Part shown: positions 3,524 to 15,652 of the stretch, piece by piece | Layout of the letters: each line of letters begins with the position of its first letter | How positions within the stretch are numbered: position 1 is the first letter of the stretch | Source: an uncultured bacterium | GTDB lineage: Bacteria > Nitrospirota > Thermodesulfovibrionia > Thermodesulfovibrionales > JdFR-86 | Direction: 5' to 3' | Length of the DNA stretch: 15,652 nucleotides | NCBI GenBank assembly: GCA_965372535.1 | Contig: CBDVCR010000071.1 | Location: 1-15,652, forward strand | Translations under genes and position numbers: made by a program | The notes under the pieces: model-generated | Told to the model about the DNA's origin: nothing | What the model saw: the letters and a program-made list of their open reading frames with translations, nothing else | Database searches by the model: none

Positions 3524-4942
3524 TCAATCGACCCTCATGAAATAGCCGCCCCTCCGGGTATCCCCCCACCCCTTGAGGTCCCCTGTCACGGCATGCACCC
3601 CGCCGAAGTAAACCTCTTTTTCCCGCCACGGGTTAAGAGGGTATTTCCCCCGGACAGCGCGCAGGGCGTCCTCGCCGAAGCCCGGCTCCAACTGCAGCAC
3701 CCCCTCGTCGTCCAGGTGCATCCTCGGGGCCTCGACCGCACGGGCCGCGTCCATCCCCCTGTCCAGGAGGTTATGGATAACCTGAAGCATCGCTGTCTTA
3801 ATCCTCTTGCTCCCGCCGCTTCCGAGCACCGAGTGGATTTCCCCGTCCTTCTTTATAATTGTGGGAGACATCATGGAGCCCACCCTCGCCCCAGGCACGG
3901 TGGTGAAGAACCCGTGGGGGAAGAGGTCGTCCTCGCCCATCATGTTGTTGAGCATGACACCCGTATCCCCGAGAAAATGCCCGGAGTTCGAGCCGTTTGA
4001 CGAGGTCATTGAGACGGCGTTCCCCGCCCCGTCCACCACGCTCACATGCGTGGTGCCCGCGGCCCCCTGCCTTTCCCTGTTCATCCTCGCCATGGTTTCC
4101 GCCAGCAGCAGGCAGGCCTCCGCCTCGTCCATCCGCTCAATCTCCTCATTTTTAAGAAGCGAGAAGGCCGTCTCAAGCAACGCGCCGCCGAAGGAGGGAG
4201 GGGGATTAAAAAGCATCTCAAACCCCCTGTACGCGCACGAAAGCGGCCTTCTCTTTCTCACTTCGTACTCCCGCAGGTCCCTTGCCGTAACGCGCCCGCC
4301 GCCAGGTCTTAACTGCTCCTCAAGCCGGTGGGCGCCGCTTCCGTAAAACGCGTCAATCCACGCATCGGGCGACCTCAAGCCCAGGAACTCACCAAACAGG
4401 GGGTTATAGAGCCTCCCGCCGCTTTCCTTGCCGCCGAAAATCTCCTTTCCATAGCCGGTAACCGTGAGGATGGGCAAGAGGATTTTAATGAGATAGCTCT
4501 GAAGCCCGTCTAACTCGACCCCCTGCTCAAGGTACCTGAGGGCCGGCCGTATGATGTCCCGGATGTCCATGGAGGCGAGCTCCCGGTGAAACCTTAAAAG
4601 CCCCTTGAGCATTCCAGGCGCCGCCACGGAGGCCGTGCCGATATGGAAGACCTGTACGGTGGACTTAAACCGTATCTCCACGGGTTCGAGCACGGGTGTT
4701 TCCGAAAAAGACGCCCCCCTGCCCGGTGCGTCCACGAAGAAATCATAGACCACGTCCTCGCCCCGGTCGGCGACATGGGCCATGAGAAACCCCCCGCCCC
4801 CGAGGCTTGAGAGGACGGGCTCCGCCACCACGGAGGCGAATCCCGCCGCAACAGCCGCGTCGAAGGCGTTTCCGCCCCTCCTGAACATCTCGCACGCCGC
4901 CCCGGTGGTAAGGGGATGCCCGGAAGCCGCCGCCCCTTTCAT
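3524..4942 (-). CDS. ggt: Gamma-glutamyltransferase family protein
   Basis: 472-aa ORF; GNAFDAAVAAGFASVVAEPVLSSLGGGGFL N-terminal signature, putative catalytic Thr in GTTHVSVVDGAGNAVSMTSSNG, GS..GGSKRIKTAMLQVI near the C terminus. Confidence 0.88.
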   Translation of the reverse strand: MKGAAASGHPLTTGAACEMFRRGGNAFDAAVAAGFASVVAEPVLSSLGGGGFLMAHVADRGEDVVYDFFVDAPGRGASFSETPVLEPVEIRFKSTVQVFHIGTASVAAPGMLKGLLRFHRELASMDIRDIIRPALRYLEQGVELDGLQSYLIKILLPILTVTGYGKEIFGGKESGGRLYNPLFGEFLGLRSPDAWIDAFYGSGAHRLEEQLRPGGGRVTARDLREYEVRKRRPLSCAYRGFEMLFNPPPSFGGALLETAFSLLKNEEIERMDEAEACLLLAETMARMNRERQGAAGTTHVSVVDGAGNAVSMTSSNGSNSGHFLGDTGVMLNNMMGEDDLFPHGFFTTVPGARVGSMMSPTIIKKDGEIHSVLGSGGSKRIKTAMLQVIHNLLDRGMDAARAVEAPRMHLDDEGVLQLEPGFGEDALRAVRGKYPLNPWREKEVYFGGVHAVTGDLKGWGDTRRGGYFMRVD

Positions 4943-5040: not shown

Positions 5041-6153
5041 TCAGCAAGCGTAAAACCCCTCCCGGACGCAGGCTATCATGGACTTGAAATCCCTTTCCTC
5101 CCTGTATAGCCTTTGTTGGGCGTGAGCCCCGGTGCCGTTTTCAAGTATTTCCCCTATTGCACCCATGTACCCGAGCCCCCCGAGTTCTCCGGACTGCCGC
5201 TCTACCAGGTGTAAGAGTTCCTGTACCGCCTCCCGGATGGGGACCCTTTTTGCGGTCACGGGGTTTACGAATATCCCGTCAAGGCCGTAGCGCGCCGCCT
5301 GCCACTTGTTGGACCTCAATATCTGCATCTGCACCCTTGCCTCGGGGTGAAACTGCACGTTTGAAAGCGTGACCACAAGGGCCTGGATAAGCGCGGTAAG
5401 AGCCAGAATCTCGGCGTAACGGCAGGGCATATCACATACCCGTACCTCTACGGTGCCGAACTCCGGGTGCGGACGCACGTCCCACCAGAGGTCCTTTACG
5501 GACTCTATTATCCCTCCCATCTGAAGCAGCGAGGCCATGCGACAGAACTCGTCCCAGTTTTCGAGGGAATCCGGCAGGCCCGCAAGCGGCAGGGCCTCAA
5601 AGAGCTTTGTCCTGTAGGAGTAAAGCCCCGTGTCCTCGCCCAGGTAGAAAGGAGAGGAGGTGGAAACGGCAAGCAGGAGGGGCAGGTACATCCGGATAGT
5701 GTTGTTTATCCTTATTGCCCGCTCCGGAGAGTTGACCCCTATGTGCACATGCAAGCCCTGGCTTATAAACCTTCTGCCCACAAGCTGAAGGTCGTCCATA
5801 ACCCTGACGTATCGCGGGCTGCTGGTGACGTTTTCCGCCGAGCCCCCCTCGAAGGGGTGGAGGCTTGCGGAGTAGAAGACCGCGCCGAAGTTTTTTAATA
5901 GTCCCTCAAGGTAGGAGAGCGTACTCCGCAGGTCGGCGTCCACCTCCTTGACGTCGGCGCAGATACGGGTGTTTACCTCTATCATGGAACGGATGAACTC
6001 TTCCTTTATGCGGTCCGTATAGGCGGGGTCCATTGAAGACAGCACCTCGGGCGCGATGTTCTTAAACCAAAGAGTTCCGGCGTCCAGGAGCTGAAGCTCG
6101 AGTTCCACCCCGATGGTGGGCTCGGGGCTTGAGTTAAACCTTAACTCGGGCAC
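5041..6153 (-). CDS. ybdK: Carboxylate-amine ligase / glutamate-cysteine ligase type 2 (YbdK, GCS2 family); GTG start
   Basis: 370-aa ORF: TIGVELELQLLDAGTL, SLHPF, GLHVHIGV, FEVRVCDMPC-like segment (HPEFGTVEVRVCDMPC), C-terminal NKWQAARYGLDGI. Confidence 0.88.
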   Translation of the reverse strand: MPELRFNSSPEPTIGVELELQLLDAGTLWFKNIAPEVLSSMDPAYTDRIKEEFIRSMIEVNTRICADVKEVDADLRSTLSYLEGLLKNFGAVFYSASLHPFEGGSAENVTSSPRYVRVMDDLQLVGRRFISQGLHVHIGVNSPERAIRINNTIRMYLPLLLAVSTSSPFYLGEDTGLYSYRTKLFEALPLAGLPDSLENWDEFCRMASLLQMGGIIESVKDLWWDVRPHPEFGTVEVRVCDMPCRYAEILALTALIQALVVTLSNVQFHPEARVQMQILRSNKWQAARYGLDGIFVNPVTAKRVPIREAVQELLHLVERQSGELGGLGYMGAIGEILENGTGAHAQQRLYREERDFKSMIACVREGFYAC

Positions 6154-7330
6154 GTTTTTCCTTCAGGCTTTCGACGGCCCTCCTTACGGCGGCGTCGAAA
6201 AAGGCCGCACCGACGCGTATCACGTCCTCATCGAAGTTGAAGTTCGAGCTGTGGGCCGTGGCGGACTCCCCGCCCCTGCCCACTGCGCCGAAGCGTACGA
6301 AACAGCCGGGCACTTCCTTAAGATAGTAGGCGAAATCCTCCCCTCCCATGCTGGGCTTTACCAGGTTGATGAACTTCTCCCTGCCGAGCAGTCCCTCCGC
6401 CGCTTCCCGTGCGAGCAGGTAGCATTCGGGATGGTTAACCACCGGAGGGTAACCCTCGAAAATATTCACCTCAATCCTTGCGTCATGGAGCGATGCCATC
6501 CCCTCGGCGGTCTTCTGAATTCTTTTGAGCACGTCTTTTCTGGTCTTTCCATCGGTATTGCGTACTGTGCCCTTGAGGACGGCCTCGTCGGCCACCGCGT
6601 TGTAAACAGTGCCGGCATGGAGGCTCCCGACGGTTATCACCGTGGGGTTCAGGGGGTTGATGCTCCTTGAGATGATGTTCTGAAGGGCCATCACAAAAAG
6701 GCTCGCCACCACGACTGCGTCCACGGTTTCGTGGGGCCGGGCGGCGTGCCCCCCCCGTCCGAGTATCCTTATCTCGATGGCGTCGGTATAGGAGGAGTCC
6801 ACGTCCGTCCGTATGGCGATTTCTCCCAGTTTGAACGCGCCGTCGATATGTCCGCCGAATATCATGTCCACGCCGTCGAGCGCGCCCGCCTCTATCATGG
6901 AGCGTGCGCCTCCGCTTCCCTCCTCGGCGGGCTGAAAGAGCAGTACCACGTTGCCGGGCGGCGGGGATTTCCTGAGAAGCTCCGCGGCGCCGAGCACGAT
7001 GGCCACATGGCCGTCATGCCCGCAGGCGTGCATGTAGCCTTTTACCCTGGAGGCGTAGGGGAGACCTGTCTTCTCCTCGATGGGCAGGGCGTCCATGTCC
7101 GCCCTTAGGGCCACGGTGGGCGCCGGGGGACCGTGGTTGTCGATGCGGGCCACTATGCCGGTCTTTGCGATGCCGCGCCTGTAGGGGATGGAAAGCCTCT
7201 CCAGATACCTGGCGATGGCCTCGCCGGTCTTTTTCTCCTTGAAGGCGGGCTCGGGCCAGCGGTGAATTCTCCTCCTGAGACTCACAAGGCGTTTAAACGT
7301 CCTGTCGTCCATCAAGCGCTTAAAGGGCAT
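6134..7330 (-). CDS. M20-family (M20D-like) amidohydrolase / metallopeptidase
   Basis: LRRRIHRWPEPAFKEKKTGEAIARYL, LRADMDALPIEEKTGLPYAS...GYMHACGHDGHVA, FQPAEEGSGGARSMIEAG, GGHAARPHETVDAV, MGGEDFAYY. Start uncertain: the ORF track extends to a GTG at 7369; ATG at 7330 or 7312 fits the family start better. 3' end overlaps the ybdK start by 20 nt. Confidence 0.87.
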   Translation of the reverse strand: MPFKRLMDDRTFKRLVSLRRRIHRWPEPAFKEKKTGEAIARYLERLSIPYRRGIAKTGIVARIDNHGPPAPTVALRADMDALPIEEKTGLPYASRVKGYMHACGHDGHVAIVLGAAELLRKSPPPGNVVLLFQPAEEGSGGARSMIEAGALDGVDMIFGGHIDGAFKLGEIAIRTDVDSSYTDAIEIRILGRGGHAARPHETVDAVVVASLFVMALQNIISRSINPLNPTVITVGSLHAGTVYNAVADEAVLKGTVRNTDGKTRKDVLKRIQKTAEGMASLHDARIEVNIFEGYPPVVNHPECYLLAREAAEGLLGREKFINLVKPSMGGEDFAYYLKEVPGCFVRFGAVGRGGESATAHSSNFNFDEDVIRVGAAFFDAAVRRAVESLKEKRARVKV

Positions 7331-7442
7331 AATAAATTTTAGCACATGCGGGGGGATTAAAAGAGGCACGCGCAGGTTTACCCGCAGCCGTCAATGCATT
7401 GCAAAAATACAAAATATTTGCCCGTAAACCGGTTGAATCATT

Positions 7443-8311: not shown

Positions 8312-9481
8312 TTACCCCCCTTTTTCGGGCGCGTACCGAAACACCGCGGCCAGCGGCGCATCCACCGGCATTTTTTCGCGGGCAACAGCGTAAACAGTCC
8401 CGCGGTTTAGAAGCGTTCGGACCGCGGCCAGGTCCAGGAGGTCCTCCTTTTCAGGACCTTCTTCGGGTTCAAGGCTCACCGTGTCTGTTTCGGGGTCGTA
8501 TCTGCCCCACTCTTGCTCGCCAGAAGCGGCAAACAGCACATCTACACTTCCGGCGGAAGCGGCCGGGACAACGACGTTTATGTCCGTAGAAGCATGCCCG
8601 GTGCCCAGAAGCTCCCTGCAGCGCGCCGCAGCCTCCTCGCGGGCCTTGAGAAAAAGGGGCTCCACCACGGCCCATGCCTCCTTGTGCAGACGTTCCGCGC
8701 CCGCCCTTTCCGGGTTGCCCGCCACCCCCCTGTCAACGAGATAGGGGTATGTGTTCGCCTCCCGGTATATCGCGTTGATATACTCGACGCCCGCCAGGAC
8801 CAGGAACGAGTGTTCTTCCTTGAGAAGTTCGTGCAGGCCCCTGTCTACATGGCGGCAGAATCTCAGTACAGCGTCCTTTTCGTCATCCACGCCGACACCG
8901 TGGCCGTGGAACATGGCGGGCCGCTGCCGCATTCCCCCTCCCGTGCCCGTATGAAACTGGAGCTGTTTCTGAGGGTCGTCGTATTTCAGGGCGTCGGCAA
9001 GGCTTTTCGGTACGTCTTTAAGAGACGCCTCGGCCATGCTGTATCGGGAGCCCTGAAACAACCTGACCCCGTTCTGGCTTAGCGCAAGGAGATAGAATCG
9101 CCCGTCCCCGCTGAACAGGGGGAGCAGCGGCTTGAGGTGGAAACGCCGGCCCGGGACAAGCAGTTCTTCAAAGCTCATGGGAAGACGGTAACGGCGGAAT
9201 TCCCCGGCCGAGGCGAACACGGCCAGCCCATCGCTCCTGTGCTCCCAGAAATCCCTGTCGCCCAACAGCATGTGGCCGGGCCTCAGCATCTCTCCGGCCT
9301 CGGCGGAGCGGAGGCCGCCTTCCAGCAGAAGCCCTTCGGCCCGCGAGAGCAGATTTTTGAACCTTACCGGGTCCTGCTCCGCCCCGCCGCCCGTCCTGTG
9401 CGTGGGCATGTAAATCGATATGCATCGGCCGCCGCTTCCTCCCGCAAGCGCCCTCAGGTCATTGATTCCCAGCATATCCAT
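8312..9481 (-). CDS. Probable bacterial archaeo-eukaryotic release factor (baeRF, eRF1-like) family protein
   Basis: 389-aa ORF: CISIYMPTHRTGGGAEQDPVRFKNLLSRAEGLL, RPGHMLLGDRDFWEHRSDGLAVFASAGEFRRYRLP, VPGRRFHLKPLLPLFSGDGRFYLLALSQNGVRLFQGSRYSM, C-terminal LNRGTVYAVAREKMPVDAPLAAVFRY. Confidence 0.75.
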   Translation of the reverse strand: MDMLGINDLRALAGGSGGRCISIYMPTHRTGGGAEQDPVRFKNLLSRAEGLLLEGGLRSAEAGEMLRPGHMLLGDRDFWEHRSDGLAVFASAGEFRRYRLPMSFEELLVPGRRFHLKPLLPLFSGDGRFYLLALSQNGVRLFQGSRYSMAEASLKDVPKSLADALKYDDPQKQLQFHTGTGGGMRQRPAMFHGHGVGVDDEKDAVLRFCRHVDRGLHELLKEEHSFLVLAGVEYINAIYREANTYPYLVDRGVAGNPERAGAERLHKEAWAVVEPLFLKAREEAAARCRELLGTGHASTDINVVVPAASAGSVDVLFAASGEQEWGRYDPETDTVSLEPEEGPEKEDLLDLAAVRTLLNRGTVYAVAREKMPVDAPLAAVFRYAPEKGG

Positions 9482-9757: not shown

Positions 9758-9848
9758 GCTCTGAGGCGACCTCTCACTGACGGAAAACGGCGCCGTCTCG
9801 ATGTTTGCTGCAGGGGGCCGAGGCATATTTTTTTTACCTCGATAGATT

Positions 9849-9857
9849 TGTTATACT
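9849..9857 (+). promoter_or_regulatory. Possible extended -10 promoter element for the motor-like operon
   Basis: TGtTATACT at 9849-9857, 26 nt before the ATG at 9884; no convincing -35, which is common for extended -10 promoters. Confidence 0.4.
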
Positions 9858-9883: not shown

Positions 9884-11275
9884 ATGTCCCGGTTAAAACT
9901 CATAGGTTCAGCTCTGACGGTATGCGCTCTGGTGCTGATGCGGCCCGCTCCCGGTGCGGCGATAAGCGAAACGAGCGACGAATATTCCTTCAAAATCACT
10001 GTCGAAACCCACCTCGGGGAGCACCTCAAGTCCGTGCTCACGGACATCGCCGGCTCCGACGACATCATCGTCATAGTCAACGCGGAGGTGGAAACCGACA
10101 AGAAGAGCAAGAAGAAAAAGCGTAAAAAACCCCAGGGCCTCGTGCTTCCCGGCGTCCCGGTTAAGAAGGAAATCGGCAAGAGCGCGGACGAGGCAATGGC
10201 CATTGCAAGCATGGTGCGGAGGCTTGAGGTGGAAATCCTGGTGGACAACGACATTTCCGAGTCCCTCACCCAACTCGCCCACGACATCGCCATCTCCGTC
10301 ATCGGATACGACCCCGACCGGGGCGACAGGCTCACCATCAGGCGAATTGAGTTCGGAAACAAGGGATTTAAGTGGGCCTCGATGTTTTACCCGCCCCACC
10401 TGTACTGGCTTGTTACGCTTATAGCGGGCGGCTTCTTCCTGGTGTCGGCGGCCATGTTCTTCATGGACCCGTTCAAGAAACTGCCGCCCGCCGTGGGAAA
10501 CGTAAACTGGGACGTCATACTCAAGAACCCGGAGAATAAGATGTTCGGCGGAGGCCCGGCAGGCGCGCCGGCAGCGGCCCGGACAGCCAAGGCGGAAACC
10601 ATGGCCGGCAGCGGCGACCCGTTGCCCTTCGGGTTCATAAAAGACGGCCACGTCCCCGACCTGGCCTTCCTGCTTTCGGAAAGCCCTGCCGGGGACATCG
10701 CCATCGTGGCCAACTACCTGGAGCCGGACCTCTCCGCAGGGCTTCTTGAGTCCTTCCCCCCGGAGACCTATGCCGAGGTCGTACTCAAGCTTAAGGACAC
10801 CGCCGAGGCCGGCCCCGAAAGGGTGAAAGCCCTGGAGGAGTCCATCAGGGAGCGCCTGGACTACGTGGTGGGCGGCGACGACAAACTTGCTTCCGTCCTC
10901 AACCTTGCCGAGGGCGAGGTCAGGGACAAGGTGCTCCAAAAGCTCGAAGAGGAGGACCCGGAGGCCGTCGCCCGCCTGAGGCCGAAGATAAAGACCTTCG
11001 AGTCCATGCTGAGGTCCATGAAGCCCAATGTCCTTCAGGCCCTTTTCAGGCAGCTCGACACCACGGTGTTCGCCCGCGTCCTGAAGTCCTCCTCGGCCGA
11101 CATACAGACCAGGGTGCTGGAGTCGCTGAGCGAAGGGGCCGCCGAACTCCTGCGGGAGGAGATGGAACTGAGCCGTCCCCTGAGCGCCGCGCGCCTTAAG
11201 AAGGAAAAGCAGAACATCGCGGCCACCGTCATGCGGATGGCGAGTGTGGGCGTCATAGAGGAGGAAGACATCTGA
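9884..11275 (+). CDS. FliG-like protein with an N-terminal signal/TM and FliF-like periplasmic segment (FliF-FliG-type fusion)
   Basis: AAGGAG SD then ATG at 9884 (ORF track starts at an upstream TTG). Signal-like MSRLKLIGSALTVCALVLMRPAPGAA; FliF-like VRRLEVEILVDNDISESLTQLAHDIAISVIGYDPDRGDRLTIRRIEF; TM HLYWLVTLIAGGFFLVSAAMFF; C-terminal FliG-like LRSMKPNVLQALFRQLDTTVFARVLKSSSADIQTRVLESLSEGAAELLREEMELSRPLSAARLKKEKQNIAATVMRMASVGVI. Confidence 0.8.
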   Translation: MSRLKLIGSALTVCALVLMRPAPGAAISETSDEYSFKITVETHLGEHLKSVLTDIAGSDDIIVIVNAEVETDKKSKKKKRKKPQGLVLPGVPVKKEIGKSADEAMAIASMVRRLEVEILVDNDISESLTQLAHDIAISVIGYDPDRGDRLTIRRIEFGNKGFKWASMFYPPHLYWLVTLIAGGFFLVSAAMFFMDPFKKLPPAVGNVNWDVILKNPENKMFGGGPAGAPAAARTAKAETMAGSGDPLPFGFIKDGHVPDLAFLLSESPAGDIAIVANYLEPDLSAGLLESFPPETYAEVVLKLKDTAEAGPERVKALEESIRERLDYVVGGDDKLASVLNLAEGEVRDKVLQKLEEEDPEAVARLRPKIKTFESMLRSMKPNVLQALFRQLDTTVFARVLKSSSADIQTRVLESLSEGAAELLREEMELSRPLSAARLKKEKQNIAATVMRMASVGVIEEEDI

Positions 11276-11276
11276 G

Positions 11277-12059
11277 ATGGACTTTATGACCGTTTTCGGC
11301 CTTCTGATGGGCGGCGCGACCATGTTCTTCGTCATGGCCGAGGGGAATATCCTGAACATGATAATCAACCCCCTGGCTTTCATCCTGGTGTTCGGAGGCA
11401 CTTTCAGCGCCACGCTCATCTCCTATCCCTGGGACATCGTAAGGCGGATAATCCCTTCCCTGAAAACGATGTTCGTAAAAACCGGAAACGGCAGCGAGCA
11501 CCGGGAGGACCTCATAGAGCAGATTACCAGGCTGGCCGAGAAGGCCCGCCGCCAGAATATCGAGAGCCTTCAGGAGGACGTGGCTTCCATAAACGACGGT
11601 TTTCTGGCCTACGGCATCCAGATGGTGCTGGACGGCCTCGAGCACGAAGTCGTGAAGGACAACCTGGAAAAGGAGATACTTTTCACTCAGCGCTCCCGGC
11701 GCAAGGTCAGCGACGCGTTCCGCACCATGGCCACCTTAGCGCCCATTTTCGGGCTGCTGGGGACCCTCATCGGCGTGGTGCAGGTGCTCAGGAACCTCTC
11801 GGACCCCACCAGCATGGGCGAGGCCATGGCCATCGCCATAACCACCACCTTCTACGGCATTTTCGCGGCCAATTTTCTCTTTCTGCCCGCCGCCATAAAG
11901 CTCAACGAGAACAACGAAGACGAAGTGATGAACTGGCAGATTGCGGCCGAGGGCATATTGTCCATCCAGCAGGGCGACCTCCCGCTGATAGTGAGGAAAA
12001 AACTCAACGCTTTCCTGCTTAAAAGCCTCGGCCGCGAAGGTGGGACCCGAAAAGACTGA
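11277..12059 (+). CDS. motA: MotA-family stator / ion channel protein
   Basis: 260-aa ORF: NPLAFILVFGGTFSATLISYP, FRTMATLAPIFGLLGTLIGVVQVLRNLSDPTSMGEAMAIAITTTFYGIFAANFLFLPAAIKL, typical MotA TM3-TM4 signature with both prolines. Confidence 0.93.
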   Translation: MDFMTVFGLLMGGATMFFVMAEGNILNMIINPLAFILVFGGTFSATLISYPWDIVRRIIPSLKTMFVKTGNGSEHREDLIEQITRLAEKARRQNIESLQEDVASINDGFLAYGIQMVLDGLEHEVVKDNLEKEILFTQRSRRKVSDAFRTMATLAPIFGLLGTLIGVVQVLRNLSDPTSMGEAMAIAITTTFYGIFAANFLFLPAAIKLNENNEDEVMNWQIAAEGILSIQQGDLPLIVRKKLNAFLLKSLGREGGTRKD

Positions 12060-12724
12060 TGAAGCTGTTCATCCCGGAAAACAGGAGGCGTGGGGGCGCG
12101 CTTTGGCTTGTCATATTTTCCGACCTTTCGACGAACCTCATGCTCTTTTTCCTTATTCTCTTCGCCATGACCAGGATGAGTGCCGCCGAGCGCGAGACGG
12201 TGATAGAGGGCATGCAGCGGGCGACCTCCAACCAGGCCGCCCTTGAGGAGCGGGCTTTGAAAAAACAGAAGGAAAAAAACGCCATAAGGACGCTCGAGGA
12301 CACCATTGCCTACGGCAGGCTGAAGAAATACACGAACCTCTCCGTGGGCGACGATAAAATCAAGCTGACCATAGAACTGCCGTTTTTCTTCGCCACCGGG
12401 AGCGCGGAAATCAACGCCGCCGCCCGTCCGGCCCTCAAAAGCCTCGTGATCCCCATTAAAGAGTTCCCCAACGACATAATCATAGAGGGCCATACCGACA
12501 ACGTGCCCATGACTGCGGGCCACAGGTACGGCTCGAACTGGGAGCTCTCGGTGGCCCGCGCCGTCAGCGTTATAAACTTCTTCAAGGAAAAGGGGGTCAA
12601 CCCCGCAAAGCTGGTCTCGGGCGGCTACGGGGAGTACCACCCGGCGTTTCCGAACGACACCCCCCGGAACAGGGCGAAAAACAGGCGCATAGAAATCACC
12701 ATTCTCCGGCAACCTGCGGTGTAG
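12059..12724 (+). CDS. motB: MotB-like / OmpA-domain stator protein with conserved TM aspartate
   Basis: WLVIFSDLSTNLMLFFLILFAM TM with Asp; OmpA-like domain IIIEGHTDNVPMTAGHRYGSNWELSVARAVSVINFFKEKGVNPAKLVSGGYGEYHP...NRAKNRRIEITI. Start ATG overlaps the motA TGA. Confidence 0.9.
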   Translation: MKLFIPENRRRGGALWLVIFSDLSTNLMLFFLILFAMTRMSAAERETVIEGMQRATSNQAALEERALKKQKEKNAIRTLEDTIAYGRLKKYTNLSVGDDKIKLTIELPFFFATGSAEINAAARPALKSLVIPIKEFPNDIIIEGHTDNVPMTAGHRYGSNWELSVARAVSVINFFKEKGVNPAKLVSGGYGEYHPAFPNDTPRNRAKNRRIEITILRQPAV

Positions 12725-12730
12725 GGCAAA

Positions 12731-13381
12731 GTGGCGCTCCACCGAAAAGTACTCAACATCCTCGTAGGGGGAAGGCCGGAGCCCATGAGCTGGCTGCTCC
12801 CCCACAGCACCCTTATGCTCGTCCTGATGATACTGTTCGTGGCCCTGTTCAGTTACTCCTACCTGAACTCGGTCGAGTACGAGTCCGCCCTTGTAGACCT
12901 GGAGACGCCGAAGGCCGAGTTGAGCCCTTCCAAAAGGGAAATCCACCTCGCCAAGAGCATCAGGAAGTTCATCGAAGACATGGGCATGGAGGGCGTCGCC
13001 AGCGTTAACGTGACTCCCCACGCCATAAAGCTCAAGCTTTCAAGCCCCGTGATGTTCGAAAGCGGGAGCGCCGAGCTTACGCCCTTCATCATGCCCATGC
13101 TTGTGGAACTCCTCAGGCACCTGAGGGACATGGAAAACACCATAATCGTGGAGGGACACACCGACAACGTGCCCATACACAGCGCCCTTTACCGCTCCAA
13201 CTGGGAGCTCTCGGCCGCAAGGGCCTTCAGCATAATATATTTTTATATAAAGAGAGACATCGAGCCGGAACGCCTCATCGCCCACGGCTACGGAGAGCAC
13301 AGGCCGTTTTACTCCAACGAGAGCGAGTTCGGGCGCGCCATGAACCGGCGGATAGAGATAACAATCGTAAGGGGAGGATAA
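12731..13381 (+). CDS. Second MotB-like / OmpA-domain protein, apparently lacking the TM aspartate; GTG start
   Basis: WLLPHSTLMLVLMILFVALFSYSYLN TM; OmpA-like domain FESGSAELTPFIMPMLVELLRHLRDMENTIIVEGHTDNVPIHSALYRSNWELSAARAFSIIYFYIKRDIEPERLIAHGYGEHRPF...GRAMNRRIEITIVRGG. Confidence 0.88.
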   Translation: MALHRKVLNILVGGRPEPMSWLLPHSTLMLVLMILFVALFSYSYLNSVEYESALVDLETPKAELSPSKREIHLAKSIRKFIEDMGMEGVASVNVTPHAIKLKLSSPVMFESGSAELTPFIMPMLVELLRHLRDMENTIIVEGHTDNVPIHSALYRSNWELSAARAFSIIYFYIKRDIEPERLIAHGYGEHRPFYSNESEFGRAMNRRIEITIVRGG

Positions 13382-13382
13382 A

Positions 13383-14684
13383 GTGAAGGCAGCACTTGCA
13401 GCCGTATTAACAATGCTCCTGCTTTCCTGGGCGGCGCCGGCCGCCACGGCCCGGGAGACAGGGGGAAAAGCCGGGAAGGCGCGGGACATGGCCGTGAGCC
13501 TCTTCAACCAGGGCAAATACGAGGAGGCCCTTCCACTGTTGAAAGAGATTCTCTCGGAAAACCCCGACGACAAGGTCGCACAGAGGTACCTGCTTATTTA
13601 CAATCAGCAGGTCGTCGAGCCCTACTGCAGGCAGGCGGCCCAGTCCTACTTTGCCGGAGACTACCCTTCCGCGGTCACCCAGTGGGAGAAAATCCTCCGG
13701 ATAAACCCCAACGACATGCGCGTCCGGAAGCTCCTGGACAGGACGATTACCGTCTCCAACCAGGAAGCCCTGGACTCCCTCTACTCCAACGTGACCACGC
13801 TTATGAAGGACAGTAGATACGCCCTGGCAGCGGGCGAACTCGAAAAAATCCTCCAGATAAGGCCCCTTGAGCAGCGGGCGCATGAACTGCTGTCCATAGT
13901 GCGCCGCACCCTTACGGACAGCGCCGTTAAAGAGCTATACGAAAAAGCCAACCAGTATTTCGAGCAGAAGGAATACGACCTCGCCATCGAGCAGTGGCGG
14001 AAGATACTGGAGGTAGACCCGGGCCAGGACCTGGCCTCCCGGCAGATTGCCACCGTGCACCGCCGAAAGCTCGACAAGATGTACACCACAGCCGAACGGC
14101 TCTACCTCGAAGGCGACCTCGCCGCCTCCCGCGACCTCTACAGCAATATTCTTTCCGAAAACCCCACCGACCTTTCCATTAAAAAAACCATAGACCGCCT
14201 CAACGGGACGATAAACATCGTGCCCAGGCTTACTGAGGAGGGGAAGGTCTGGGACGTGCTCAGAAAGGGCGTCGCCCACCACGTCTCGGAGGACGGAAAC
14301 CCCAGGGTGGCCGTTGCCGCCGCCTGGTATGCCGTGCAGCTTGAGCCGGAAAACGCCACGATACTGGCGCTCATGGACCACATGGAGCGGGAAAACTTCG
14401 CCGTCGTCCGCACAATGGCGCCCCCGGTGGACGAGATGAACGTCGTGGACCAGTACCTTTTCACCGCCCTCAACAACATCTACGAGGGCCGCTACGACCT
14501 GGCCGTCCAGGAGTGCGGGATTGTGCTCGAACTCGAGCCGGAAAACATCCTGGCCATGAAGCGCCTGGGCTCGGCCTACTACGCCCTCGGCAGAGCGGGC
14601 AAGGCCAAGAAAGCCTGGCAGAAGGCGCTCAGGCTCTCGCCCAACGACAGCGAACTCAAGGGCTTCATAAAACAGCTCCGGTAA
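13383..14684 (+). CDS. Exported TPR-repeat protein; GTG start
   Basis: Signal-like MKAALAAVLTMLLLSWAAPAATA; repeated TPR units (FNQGKYEEALPLLKEILSENPDD, YFAGDYPSAVTQWEKILRINPND, YFEQKEYDLAIEQWRKILEVDPG, IYEGRYDLAVQECGIVLELEPENILAMKRLGSAYYALGRAGKAKKAWQKALRLSPND). GGAGG SD. Confidence 0.88.
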   Translation: MKAALAAVLTMLLLSWAAPAATARETGGKAGKARDMAVSLFNQGKYEEALPLLKEILSENPDDKVAQRYLLIYNQQVVEPYCRQAAQSYFAGDYPSAVTQWEKILRINPNDMRVRKLLDRTITVSNQEALDSLYSNVTTLMKDSRYALAAGELEKILQIRPLEQRAHELLSIVRRTLTDSAVKELYEKANQYFEQKEYDLAIEQWRKILEVDPGQDLASRQIATVHRRKLDKMYTTAERLYLEGDLAASRDLYSNILSENPTDLSIKKTIDRLNGTINIVPRLTEEGKVWDVLRKGVAHHVSEDGNPRVAVAAAWYAVQLEPENATILALMDHMERENFAVVRTMAPPVDEMNVVDQYLFTALNNIYEGRYDLAVQECGIVLELEPENILAMKRLGSAYYALGRAGKAKKAWQKALRLSPNDSELKGFIKQLR

Positions 14685-14874
14685 GGGGCTCGCCGCCCAG
14701 GAGGTCGATTTCCGCGACGCCGATTTCAAGGAGGGTTTCAGCGAGCTTTTCAAAATCCCCGATTTCGATATCCGCATGTGCCTCTACTCCCCGGGTAAAG
14801 CAGAAACCGCACGCCCGGTCGCAGCGCAGGGTGGGGTAGAGCTGGACGAAACGGGGCCTGCCGGGCGTTGTCAT
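14685..14874 (-). pseudogene. Truncated N-terminal fragment of a radical SAM protein
   Basis: Minus-strand MTTPGRPRFVQLYPTLRCDRACGFCFTRGVEAHADIEIGDFEKLAETLLEIGVAEIDLLGGEP: CxxxCxxC cluster motif and GGEP motif, then reading frame runs into the end of the TPR gene and stops at 14665; rest of the protein is absent. Confidence 0.72.
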
Positions 14875-14899
14875 GTGTTATTATCGTGAAAGGCATCGC

Positions 14900-14935
14900 A
14901 AAAAGTAAAAGGGTTGCGGGAGCAACCCGCAACCC
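14900..14935 (-). terminator. Strong stem-loop with T-rich tail (Rho-independent terminator, minus direction)
   Basis: GGGTTGCGGG (14911-14920) agcaa CCCGCAACCC (14926-14935), perfect 10-bp stem; on the minus strand followed by TTTTACTTTTT. Confidence 0.7.
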
Positions 14936-14946
14936 CTTGATATCTT

Positions 14947-15060
14947 ATGGTGGCGCTGAGCGGGCTCAAGGAACTCTTGAACCACAAGACGCTGAATATG
15001 ACTCTCTGATATGCTTATCCGGCTCCGAGCCACAAGGTCAAGTGTGGGGGTGCTGAATTA
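14947..15060 (+). pseudogene. Remnant of a tyrosine recombinase / phage integrase C-terminus
   Basis: Plus-frame reading: MVALSGLKELLNHKTLNMTL*YAYPAPSHKVKCGGAEL, resembling the family box xLLGHKTLxMTLRYAHLxPxHK with the Arg codon as TGA; upstream frame is closed. Confidence 0.72.
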
Positions 15061-15073
15061 TGTATAATTTTAC

Positions 15074-15652
15074 ATGAAGGAAATTACTCTATATGGTCCA
15101 TATTCAATTGTAAGTTCTGATCATGACATACTTTCTGATTGCCCATACTCTCAAAAGGCGGGGATATATTTGTGGGCTGTGAAAATGTTTTCAAATTATT
15201 TCAGAGTAACATACATCGGAGAGACCGGTACTTCATTTTATAAAAGAACCAAAGAGCATGTAATTCAAACGTTGGGGGGTAATTATCAAATATGTGATCC
15301 CGATGCAATGCAAAGAGGTGAATCTATAGTTGTATGGAATGGTTTATGGAGAAAAGGTTATAGGGACAAGTTTCCTGAGTTTTTGAGAAGATATGAGGGT
15401 ATTGCTACAGTGATAAAAGGTGCTCTCAGTGTCCAAAATATCTTTGTAGCTCCTATGGATGTGGATTCAAGGACACGTAAGCGTATCGAAGGTGCTTTAG
15501 CCTTTGCTGTAAGAAATAATAAAGATGCATCGTCTTTGCTTCCCAAAGACATTCGATACTTCAAGAATAAAGAAGATGAGAGTCCAATCGCTATAAGCAT
15601 CGAAGCACAATCGAAAATTGAAGGGCTGCCAAGGCAAATAATATGTGTGTAA
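15074..15652 (+). CDS. GIY-YIG domain protein
   Basis: 192-aa complete ORF: QKAGIYLWAVKMFSNYFRVTYIGETGTSFYKRTKEHVIQTLGGNY; GIY ... YIG spacing and downstream SFYKRxKEH typical of the GIY-YIG fold. Markedly lower GC than the rest of the window. TATAAT at 15063-15068 lies only 5 nt before the ATG. Confidence 0.75.
   Translation: MKEITLYGPYSIVSSDHDILSDCPYSQKAGIYLWAVKMFSNYFRVTYIGETGTSFYKRTKEHVIQTLGGNYQICDPDAMQRGESIVVWNGLWRKGYRDKFPEFLRRYEGIATVIKGALSVQNIFVAPMDVDSRTRKRIEGALAFAVRNNKDASSLLPKDIRYFKNKEDESPIAISIEAQSKIEGLPRQIICV

Follow-up and report, generated by a model that had tools for sequence, protein, structure and literature searches.

The torque interface between the rotor protein FliG and the stator protein MotA has until now been regarded as a feature of flagella alone. 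Two charge pairings have been published for it, MotA R90 with FliG D289 and MotA E98 with FliG R281 (PMC7564593; PMC12505986). Flagellar-type stators are those whose MotA has an expanded cytoplasmic, torque-generating domain, and they form a flagellum-specific clade, while the non-flagellar 5:2 motors have a compact "generic" (GIT) channel and no FliG/FliF rotor (PMC12505986). Single chains combining FliF and FliG have also been described. The Chlamydiaceae fusion, of ~330 amino acids (aa), comprises ring-building motif (RBM) 2 with another RBM, a transmembrane (TM) helix and a FliG-M-like region only; it has been proposed perhaps to interact with the injectisome component SctQ, and it has no MotAB partner (PMC4768692, Bergeron 2016). 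Engineered Salmonella and Vibrio FliF-FliG fusions, for their part, show that such a covalent chain can assemble into MS/S-rings (PDB 8z4d; PMC11481574). Here we describe a five-gene cassette at positions 9884–14684, plus strand, of a 15,652-nt stretch of DNA from an uncultured Nitrospirota bacterium (the window; contig CBDVCR010000071.1), predicted to encode a natural FliF-FliG fusion (G1), a flagellar-type MotA (G2), a MotB (G3), a MotB paralog (G4) and a secreted tetratricopeptide repeat (TPR) protein (G5). It is probably an undescribed ion-driven envelope machine, and we put at about 0.6 the probability that it is a self-contained, flagellum-independent rotor-stator machine made from flagellar motor parts. 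A literature search, which took in few subscription journals, found no description of the cassette.

The first-pass annotation of this DNA had proposed a tightly packed operon here, and an open reading frame (ORF) check finds all five plus-strand ORFs and their junctions where that annotation had placed them. The G1 stop TGA (11273–11275) is followed by a single G and then the G2 ATG at 11277; the A of the G2 stop TGA is also the A of the G3 ATG (12059); the G3 stop ends at 12724, leaving a 6-nt gap before the G4 GTG at 12731; and the G4 stop ends at 13381, 1 nt short of the G5 GTG at 13383. The five genes are translationally coupled. Purine-rich stretches resembling ribosome-binding sites lie 5' of the G1 (GGAG), G2 (GAGGAGG) and G5 (GGGGAGGA) starts, and the ATG at 9884, which follows GGAG, is the likely start of G1 over the TTG at 9848. 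Long antisense ORFs in the cassette (e.g. 9908–11419, minus strand) were set aside as shadows of the coding frames in GC-rich DNA; the GC content of the cassette, 0.57–0.61, is the same as that of its flanks.

G1 (9884–11275, 463 aa) was assigned by Pfam, PDB profile search, AlphaFold2 (AF2) and Foldseek. Pfam places YscJ_FliF_C at aa 97–157 (1.7e-7), FliG_M at 262–328 (1e-9) and FliG_C at 353–459 (6e-18). A profile built from 38 members of the G1 family retrieves from the PDB Thermotoga maritima FliG-MC (1.5e-35), Salmonella FliF residues 406–521 (3e-5), the Vibrio S-ring FliF chain (6e-5) and SpoIIIAG (0.02), and PDB 8z4d is matched both by this profile and by the AF2 model of G1. That model, of the monomer (mean pLDDT 75.6, pTM 0.35), finds FliG-MC in Foldseek at 1e-9, along with FliF RBM3, collar and S-ring structures at 4e-5 to 7e-4 (target TM ~0.6). 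A metagenome scan with the G1 family alignment returned mostly canonical fliF-fliG loci, which were then used for a test of colinearity: in tblastn against fliF-fliG-fliH-fliI loci, G1 aa 30–176 match the 3' third of fliF (E ~6e-6) and, colinear with it, aa 261–458 match the M and C domains of fliG (1e-15 to 1e-23). These concordant matches identify G1, at the level of sequence and predicted fold, as a single-pass membrane protein corresponding to FliF from RBM3 to TM2 joined to FliG M and C, without the FliF cytoplasmic tail and FliG_N, and they bear out the FliF-FliG-type fusion first read from the ORF translation. The fliG model TIGR00207 of NCBIfam gives 1.2e-20 and 74 bits (equivalog cut-off 226.7), and the fliF model TIGR00206 gives 1e-6 over model positions 235–290, far under its equivalog cut-off. 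In Pfam, NCBIfam, PDB, Foldseek and tblastn alike, the FliF-side matches are confined to the RBM3/S-ring part; FliG_N is absent by Pfam, PDB alignment and AF2, and RBM1, RBM2 and the long β-collar of FliF are absent too, G1 having a single RBM with a 37-aa insertion.

The order of elements along G1 follows from the same comparisons. Residues 1–27 (9884–9964) form a signal-peptide-like segment or N-terminal anchor by inspection (MSRLKLIGSALTVCALVLMRPAPGAA; AF2 helix 2–18). The periplasmic ring-building motif, a homolog of FliF RBM3 by AF2, TIGR00206 and tblastn, spans aa 31–155 (9974–10348) and has the fold α-β-β-α-β in the AF2 model (helix 31–56, strands 61–71 and 109–121, helix 126–140, strand 149–155); FliF 426–452 aligns to the RGD motif of G1, which the two proteins have in common. 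Between its first two strands lies the 37-residue insertion (aa 72–108; 10097–10207), which bears the family hallmark LPGVP: among 127 family members P89 is invariant, G90 is kept in 124 and P92 in 115. This insertion is disordered in the AF2 monomer and would occupy the place of the FliF β-collar. A TM helix follows at aa 172–194 (10397–10465; AF2 helix, hydrophobic stretch LYWLVTLIAGGFFLVSAAMFF), then a disordered linker and the FliG M and C helices. The FliG middle domain (aa 247–328; 10622–10867; Pfam FliG_M and T. maritima FliG alignment) begins at PFxF, which together with RGD and a Gly-Gly hinge makes up the other hallmarks of the 127 members. Its FliM-binding EHPQR motif is partly kept, reading SESPAG vs SEHPQT in T. 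maritima and canonical FliGs, and across the G1 family only the E and the P recur. The C-terminal torque domain occupies aa 353–459 (10940–11260; Pfam FliG_C and alignments).

Some members of the family are longer. Certain G1 variants of ~700–730 aa (P0140, P0202, which is L025 10001–12190, P0150 and others) have a proline-rich linker followed by a second FliG C-terminal helical bundle, so that each subunit has two torque-helix domains. A cytoplasmic TPR closes other variants (P0085, P0097, P0168), and the C-terminal TPR of some variants is weakly similar to G5 (1e-4 to 1e-7), a similarity not used for topology.

The stator genes are equally recognizable. G2 (11277–12059, 260 aa) has Pfam MotA_N and MotA_ExbB (1.9e-24) and aligns over its full length (aa 1–248) to solved MotA and PomA structures at 6.8e-46 to 1.5e-19, with MotA (6.8e-46) and PomA (2e-37) as its best PDB matches. 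The NCBIfam MotA/PomA/MotP models give ~170 bits, also over the full length and under their equivalog cut-offs, and ortholog alignments show that the prolines of TM3 and TM4 are kept. By these alignments, and in the framework of PMC12505986, G2 is a flagellar-type MotA with an expanded cytoplasmic domain, not one of ExbB/TolQ type, and the MotA originally annotated here can thus be specified as flagellar. G3 (12059–12724, 221 aa) has MotB_plug (1e-10, 41.5 bits) and OmpA (9e-18, 64.8 bits) domains in Pfam; its channel aspartate is Asp22 (codon 12122–12124), placed by the alignment of FSDLSTNLM to FSDTITLLL of C. sporogenes MotB and invariant across all orthologs aligned. G4 (12731–13381, 216 aa) is assigned by Pfam and ortholog alignments; it has a TM helix, an OmpA domain (7e-17) and MotB_plug just over the cut-off (7.6e-6), with Thr27 in the column of the channel Asp. 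The first-pass annotation had described a complete MotAB channel with two MotB-like proteins, which stands for G3, a complete MotB, and needs amending for G4, which lacks the channel Asp in this lineage.

Two MotB types can be told apart by motif, the first with SD..TNLMLFF and the second with PYAD, and both are old. The first type always keeps its Asp. In the second, the residue is Asp in four loci (L020, L021, L024 and L025), Asn in L023 and Thr in Nitrospirota; because it varies in this way among lineages, the channel Asp is dispensable in the second type, which argues against a second independent channel and points to G4 as a heterodimer partner of G3 or a scaffold. Loss of the Asp in G4 was also considered as a defining feature of the system and was rejected, given the Asp and Asn of those five loci.

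The published charge pairings can be followed column by column in the cassette proteins. In G2, R91 stands in the column of E. coli R90 and Q99 in that of E98. Cassette MotAs have Arg, or Lys then Arg, at the R90 column in all aligned, and Gln, Ala or Ser at the E98 column in each of the 13 Nitrospirota and five Elusimicrobiota-type loci that were aligned; solved MotA and PomA have Glu at that column. On the rotor side, compared with E. coli FliG, K401 of G1 corresponds to K264, the invariant G418 to R281, and E425/E426 to D288/D289. Counted over 127 diverse G1-like proteins, the column of R281 holds Gly in 112 and Arg in none, that of D289 holds Glu in 109, and that of K264 holds Lys or Arg in 97; the R297 column is Ser, Thr or Pro, with an Arg three residues on. 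Canonical FliGs from the same searches keep EHPQT, MSxRAA and GPVR, with Arg at the R281 column. Retention of the R90-D289 pair, together with loss of E98-R281 in both partners, is what would be expected if G2 and G1 touch via a simplified torque interface. On these alignments, the rotor-stator interface appears co-adapted, one charge pair being kept and the other lost on both sides.

Two further residues near these columns deserve mention. Cassette MotAs from seven of eight aligned lineages place an acidic residue (IESLQ; G2 aa 96) three positions ahead of the column where E98 was lost, and in many G1 proteins the Arg three positions past the lost R297 column (G1 aa 437) recurs. The two could form a shifted substitute charge pair.

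G5 (13383–14684, 433 aa) matches many TPR families in Pfam (TPR_2 at 7e-28) and has a signal-peptide-like N-terminus (MKAALAAVLTMLLLSWAAPAATA), in keeping with its early description as an exported TPR protein. Its C-terminal ~200 aa (14067–14678, plus strand) make up a family-specific TPR module, found by blastp in the partner proteins of distant lineages at 1e-30 to 1e-14 with 26–47% identity. The partners at L019, L021 and L022 have, ahead of this module, a ~310-aa N-terminal domain with weak, below-threshold similarity to FadL/UPF0164, and the presence of such a barrel-like domain suggests that the TPR partner links the inner-membrane ring to the outer membrane. At L018 (10592–12505), which diverges most among the Nitrospirota-type loci, a 637-aa G5 homolog includes fused FecR and DUF7354/MtxA_N domains; the Elusimicrobiota-type loci encode these in genes of their own.

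When one genome of each GTDB species was scanned, 15 loci were recovered, every one in Nitrospirota metagenome-assembled genomes, and the order G1-G2-G3-G4-G5 is found in every locus with enough sequence among these 15 species and the metagenome loci, a recurrence well beyond what chance would give. A profile search run exhaustively over 1.84 billion cluster representatives had 285 matches at E<=1e-30; the best 150 of the 285 are almost all single-stretch, full-length G1-like proteins of 430–734 aa, and the family has >120 full-length representatives at 50% identity. Several of its subfamilies carry the names Elusimicrobia, Elusimicrobiota or Endomicrobiales, and the NCBI labels are "hypothetical" or "FliG C-terminal domain-containing protein". 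L020, L023, L024 and L025 have the same five-gene order with a shorter TPR protein and a G1 ~25–30% identical to that of the window, and two of them belong to clusters or groups named after Elusimicrobiota or Endomicrobiales. At L021 the set is rearranged and still adjacent, the TPR partner and G1 adjoining a convergent MotA-MotB-MotB'. The five-gene synteny, which the first-pass annotation had marked for a search across genomes, thus extends over 15 Nitrospirota species and Elusimicrobiota-type loci. A metagenome scan with the single G1 protein found nothing, look-ups of the window's proteins on contigs gave no exact match, and further word-index homolog searches were dominated by close relatives, adding few new names.

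All five genes are under strong purifying selection, with dN/dS of 0.04–0.17 in six genome pairs; for G4, despite the missing channel Asp, the range is 0.04–0.15. In three long-read-derived contigs (L003, L015, L017) cassette genes are frameshifted, and the neighbours in L003 are fragmented as well; assembly error is probably the cause rather than pseudogenisation.

The domain identities, topology elements, key residues, conservation, synteny and selection set out above are directly supported, and they lead us to propose the following scheme, in which torque generation is something we infer from sequence. G1 would oligomerise through its RBM3-like periplasmic domain to give a membrane ring, as FliF and SpoIIIAG do, and the cytoplasmic face of that ring would display the FliG M and C torque domains covalently, not docked through FliG_N. 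G2 and G3 would form MotA5MotB2-type ion channels held to the peptidoglycan by the OmpA-like domain; ions flowing via G3 Asp22 would turn the MotA pentamer, and MotA R91, by engaging the acidic E425/E426 on the G1 torque helix, would drive the ring. The absence of FliM/FliN genes nearby and the degraded FliM-binding motif argue against a switch complex, and the ring would probably turn one way only. G4 would be the second chain of a G3:G4 heterodimer or a peptidoglycan-anchored scaffold, while G5 would lie in the periplasm and join both ring and stators to the outer membrane. The most likely route of output would run by way of the LPGVP collar and TPR partner towards a process of the envelope or cell surface, possibly the moving or deploying of large surface proteins.

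Several points weigh against this scheme. The hosts may carry complete flagella, with which the cassette could cooperate, the contexts examined being those of ~25 loci. Ring formation, stator docking and rotation are deduced purely from homology, and the AF2 model is of a monomer. G1, MotA and MotB all fall under the NCBIfam equivalog cut-offs, so that their function may have drifted. At L019 and L022, which belong to a lineage with markers of type IX secretion, G1 is extended by a C-terminal TPR and lies 3' of the partner gene, and no MotAB was found up to 8 kb away, so the ring may serve a function for which neighbouring stators are not required. Finally, the neighbours that hint at an output (cytochromes and RCC1/Lcl_C proteins; giant proteins and FecR-domain proteins) vary by lineage and are absent from the window.

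Of the other explanations, the one that survives best, unlikely as we think it, is that of a force-transducing envelope system like Tol-Pal or ExbBD-TonB, in which the stators would pull on envelope components or remodel them, and the G1 ring would be a static docking platform and not a rotor. The gene content does resemble tolQ-tolR-...-pal-cpoB, with a MotA/TolQ-family channel, OmpA-like peptidoglycan binders and a terminal TPR protein; G5 has a weak match to the YbgF/CpoB model (35 bits; cut-off 90), and the partner TPR is fused elsewhere to the outer-membrane-barrel-like domain. On the other hand, TolQ reaches only 15.9 bits (cut-off 221), TolA, TolB and TonB are all absent, and Tol-Pal had rightly been excluded from the outset. 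The best matches of G2 are all flagellar MotA/PomA, and no TonB- or GldM-like Pfam domain was found, dedicated ExbBD, AglRQS and GldLM models not having been run. G2 has the large cytoplasmic domain of the flagellar type, and a static platform would not need the torque helix of G1, with its acidic pair matching MotA R91.

Quite improbable, in our view, is a second proposal, that the cassette is an accessory or alternative rotor-stator set (a second motor type, or an extra ring of a complex motor) for a true flagellum encoded elsewhere. Such a role would suit G2 and G3, which are a typical flagellar-type MotA and a typical MotB, and TPR/Sel1 and OmpA-like scaffolds such as MotX/MotY and PflA/PflB are known in complex flagellar motors. 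The architecture of G1 fits it poorly: FliG_N and a full EHPQR are missing, and G1, without RBM1 and RBM2, therefore has no housing for an export gate. Nor does the surrounding DNA help, since no flagellar genes are found among the remaining ORFs of the window, as had been noted for these 15.6 kb, and no flagellar gene (export, rod, hook or C-ring) lies within ±8–10 kb at any locus with a gene table. The family is, moreover, abundant in Elusimicrobiota, the cultured members of which are, to our knowledge, described as non-motile.

We consider it very unlikely that the cassette is a Zorya-type anti-phage or conflict system, with a MotAB-like sensor coupled to effectors, even though G3 and G4 match ZorB models (up to 7.5e-23) and a gene of the baeRF family, often placed in conflict systems, lies divergently upstream in the window. 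The ZorB matches reflect generic MotB/OmpA similarity; G2 scores 13.8 bits (E=0.005) against ZorA and has no long ZorA tail, in line with the early exclusion of Zorya; there are no ZorC/D/E-like or other effector genes, the flanks being housekeeping genes, and baeRF is not conserved beside the cassette. A decaying remnant of a lost flagellum, without present function, might be suspected from the small subset of flagellar genes and the lost channel Asp of G4, but is scarcely credible for five intact genes with the dN/dS values given above, family-specific invariant motifs and an architecture kept down to ~25% identity in two phyla.

The reading we prefer is thus that of a self-contained rotor-stator machine, with flagellar parts used outside the flagellum and a real chance that the machine is a distinct one; the architecture of G1 and the local context of ~25 loci support the non-flagellar character proposed for it early on. 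A more specific version, in which a free-standing rotary motor, its FliF/FliG ring spun by flagellar-type stators, is coupled through a periplasmic TPR/outer-membrane module to large surface proteins, is a tentative one that we would not call probable. The genes that adjoin the cassette in the Elusimicrobiota-type loci include those of giant proteins of 2,300 to 17,141 aa (L021 1–6330; L022 1–5241; L023 1–5379; L024 17261–17500; L025 19898–22190), which carry fn3, BNR, DUF2341 and FlgD_ig domains and are usually accompanied by a FecR-domain protein, a ~640-aa protein and a CARDB-type protein.

In Nitrospirota the flanks differ among sublineages. Multihaem cytochromes adjoin the cassette in 12/15 loci: one with 19 haems comes immediately after G5, and the others are two c7-like proteins with 6 haems and MtrC-like proteins with 13 and 8; in L005 the cytochromes lie on the opposite side of the cassette. 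In most of these relatives (L004–L017; e.g. L007 4839–7501 and 14859–18044) their CXXCH counts are 19, 13, 8 and twice 6, with an MtrC/MtrF-like domain, and these loci also hold an RCC1/Lcl_C protein and a sigma-54 two-component pair. The RCC1/Lcl_C gene is divergent and upstream in most Nitrospirota loci. The window and its closest usable relative, L026, have housekeeping genes instead. Cytochromes were considered as core parts and rejected, being absent from the window, L026 and the Elusimicrobiota-type loci; none of the cytochromes, RCC1 proteins and giants occurs in the window, and we regard them as lineage-specific cargo or partners and not as core components.

The rest of the window offers little of a regulatory kind. 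A possible extended -10 promoter element (TGTTATACT; 9849–9857, plus strand), seen by eye only and weak, lies 27 nt 5' of the G1 start; a consensus scan upstream of G1 gave no sigma-70-type site, a sigma-54 site not having been searched for, and sigma-54 activators are present near related loci. A GC-rich hairpin with a 13-bp stem (14908–14938), 225 nt downstream of G5 and with its T-run on the minus strand, is a possible operon boundary or terminator. Scans of the window for tRNA and Rfam families were empty.

The other ORFs match DsrMK-like, RsbRD_N, GGT, GCS2, M20 peptidase, rhodanese and baeRF families, with one ORF lacking a match. On the minus strand, an HdrD/DsrK-like Fe-S/CCG gene (~1–1065) runs off the left edge and is accompanied by a NarI/DsrM-like membrane cytochrome b (1068–2072) and an RsbRD_N-domain protein (2127–2642); together they look like a DsrMK/HmeCD-type module, and the plus-strand ORF 39–1316 is probably a shadow of the DsrK-like gene. 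A gamma-glutamyltranspeptidase (3524–4942), a GCS2 carboxylate-amine ligase (5041–6153) and an M20 peptidase (6134–7369), the last overlapping the ligase gene by 20 nt, lie one after another on the same strand and look like a gamma-glutamyl/glutathione-type cluster. The baeRF family 7 gene (8312–9481, minus strand) points away from the cassette, with 400 bp of intergenic DNA between them, an adjacency not conserved in other loci. The contig ends ~1 kb after G5, and over positions 14700–15652 the GC content falls from ~0.59 to 0.49; the ORF of 192+ aa that extends from 15074 to the end of the window finds no match in Pfam or PADLOC. The segment may be foreign DNA, or the boundary at which related loci carry cytochrome genes.

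A conserved, selected cassette in which nothing but rotor ring, torque helix and stator is kept would show that such a module can work by itself. Structural and single-molecule studies would gain from it a minimal natural rotor-stator pair, of about five proteins in place of >25, and it would bear on how rotation came to be coupled to the secretion-derived flagellar core. Were the free-standing motor true, it would amount to a new kind of machine for surface motility or surface-protein handling; it would then also be either a surviving relative of a pre-flagellar rotor-stator module or a clean exaptation of it, and a minimal natural system for the origin of flagellar rotation. That the family occurs in poorly known phyla (Nitrospirota, Elusimicrobiota), with multihaem cytochromes or giant surface proteins as neighbours, hints at a role in the envelope or at the surface that has gone unrecognised.

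How, then, does the cassette compare with the systems already described? With the core of the flagellar motor it shares RBM3, FliG M and C with the Gly-Gly hinge and torque helix, the R90-D289-type pair, a flagellar-type (FIT/TGI-bearing) MotA, and a MotB with plug, channel Asp and OmpA-like domain. It differs in having FliF and FliG in one polypeptide, without RBM1/RBM2 or FliG_N and with a collar of only ~37 aa; in its degraded EHPQR motif and the loss of the E98-R281 pair on both sides; in the absence of FliM/N, export gate, rod, hook and filament genes near cassette loci; and in the constant presence of a second MotB paralog and a dedicated TPR protein.

The nearest described protein to G1 is the Chlamydiaceae FliF-FliG fusion, which is likewise natural, likewise combines a shortened FliF periplasmic region, a TM helix and a FliG-like domain, and occurs in hosts without flagella. 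Compared by description (PMC4768692), G1 differs from it in its length of 463 aa, in having RBM3 only, in having both FliG M and C, and in its stator operon. The engineered fusions are laboratory constructs of full-length FliF and FliG, whereas G1 is natural, shorter, and without the FliF tail and FliG_N.

Two complex flagellar motors offer parallels for the remaining proteins. The Vibrio T-ring (MotX/MotY) and the Campylobacter PflA/PflB scaffold associate a TPR/Sel1-type periplasmic protein and an OmpA-like peptidoglycan binder with the stator, and by analogy G5 and G4 could fill roles like those of MotX/MotY or PflA/PflB. Unlike those scaffolds, however, G4 is a TM-anchored MotB paralog and not a MotY-like soluble protein, and the C-terminal module of G5 is family-specific.

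Tol-Pal, ExbBD-TonB, AglRQS-Glt, GldLM/PorLM and ZorAB, for their part, resemble the cassette in putting an ion-driven channel of the MotA/ExbB family to an envelope task other than swimming, and gliding systems are also accompanied by TPR proteins, outer-membrane barrels and giant adhesins. What sets the cassette apart from all such non-flagellar 5:2 motors is that its channel is of the flagellar type and its partner a FliG-bearing ring.

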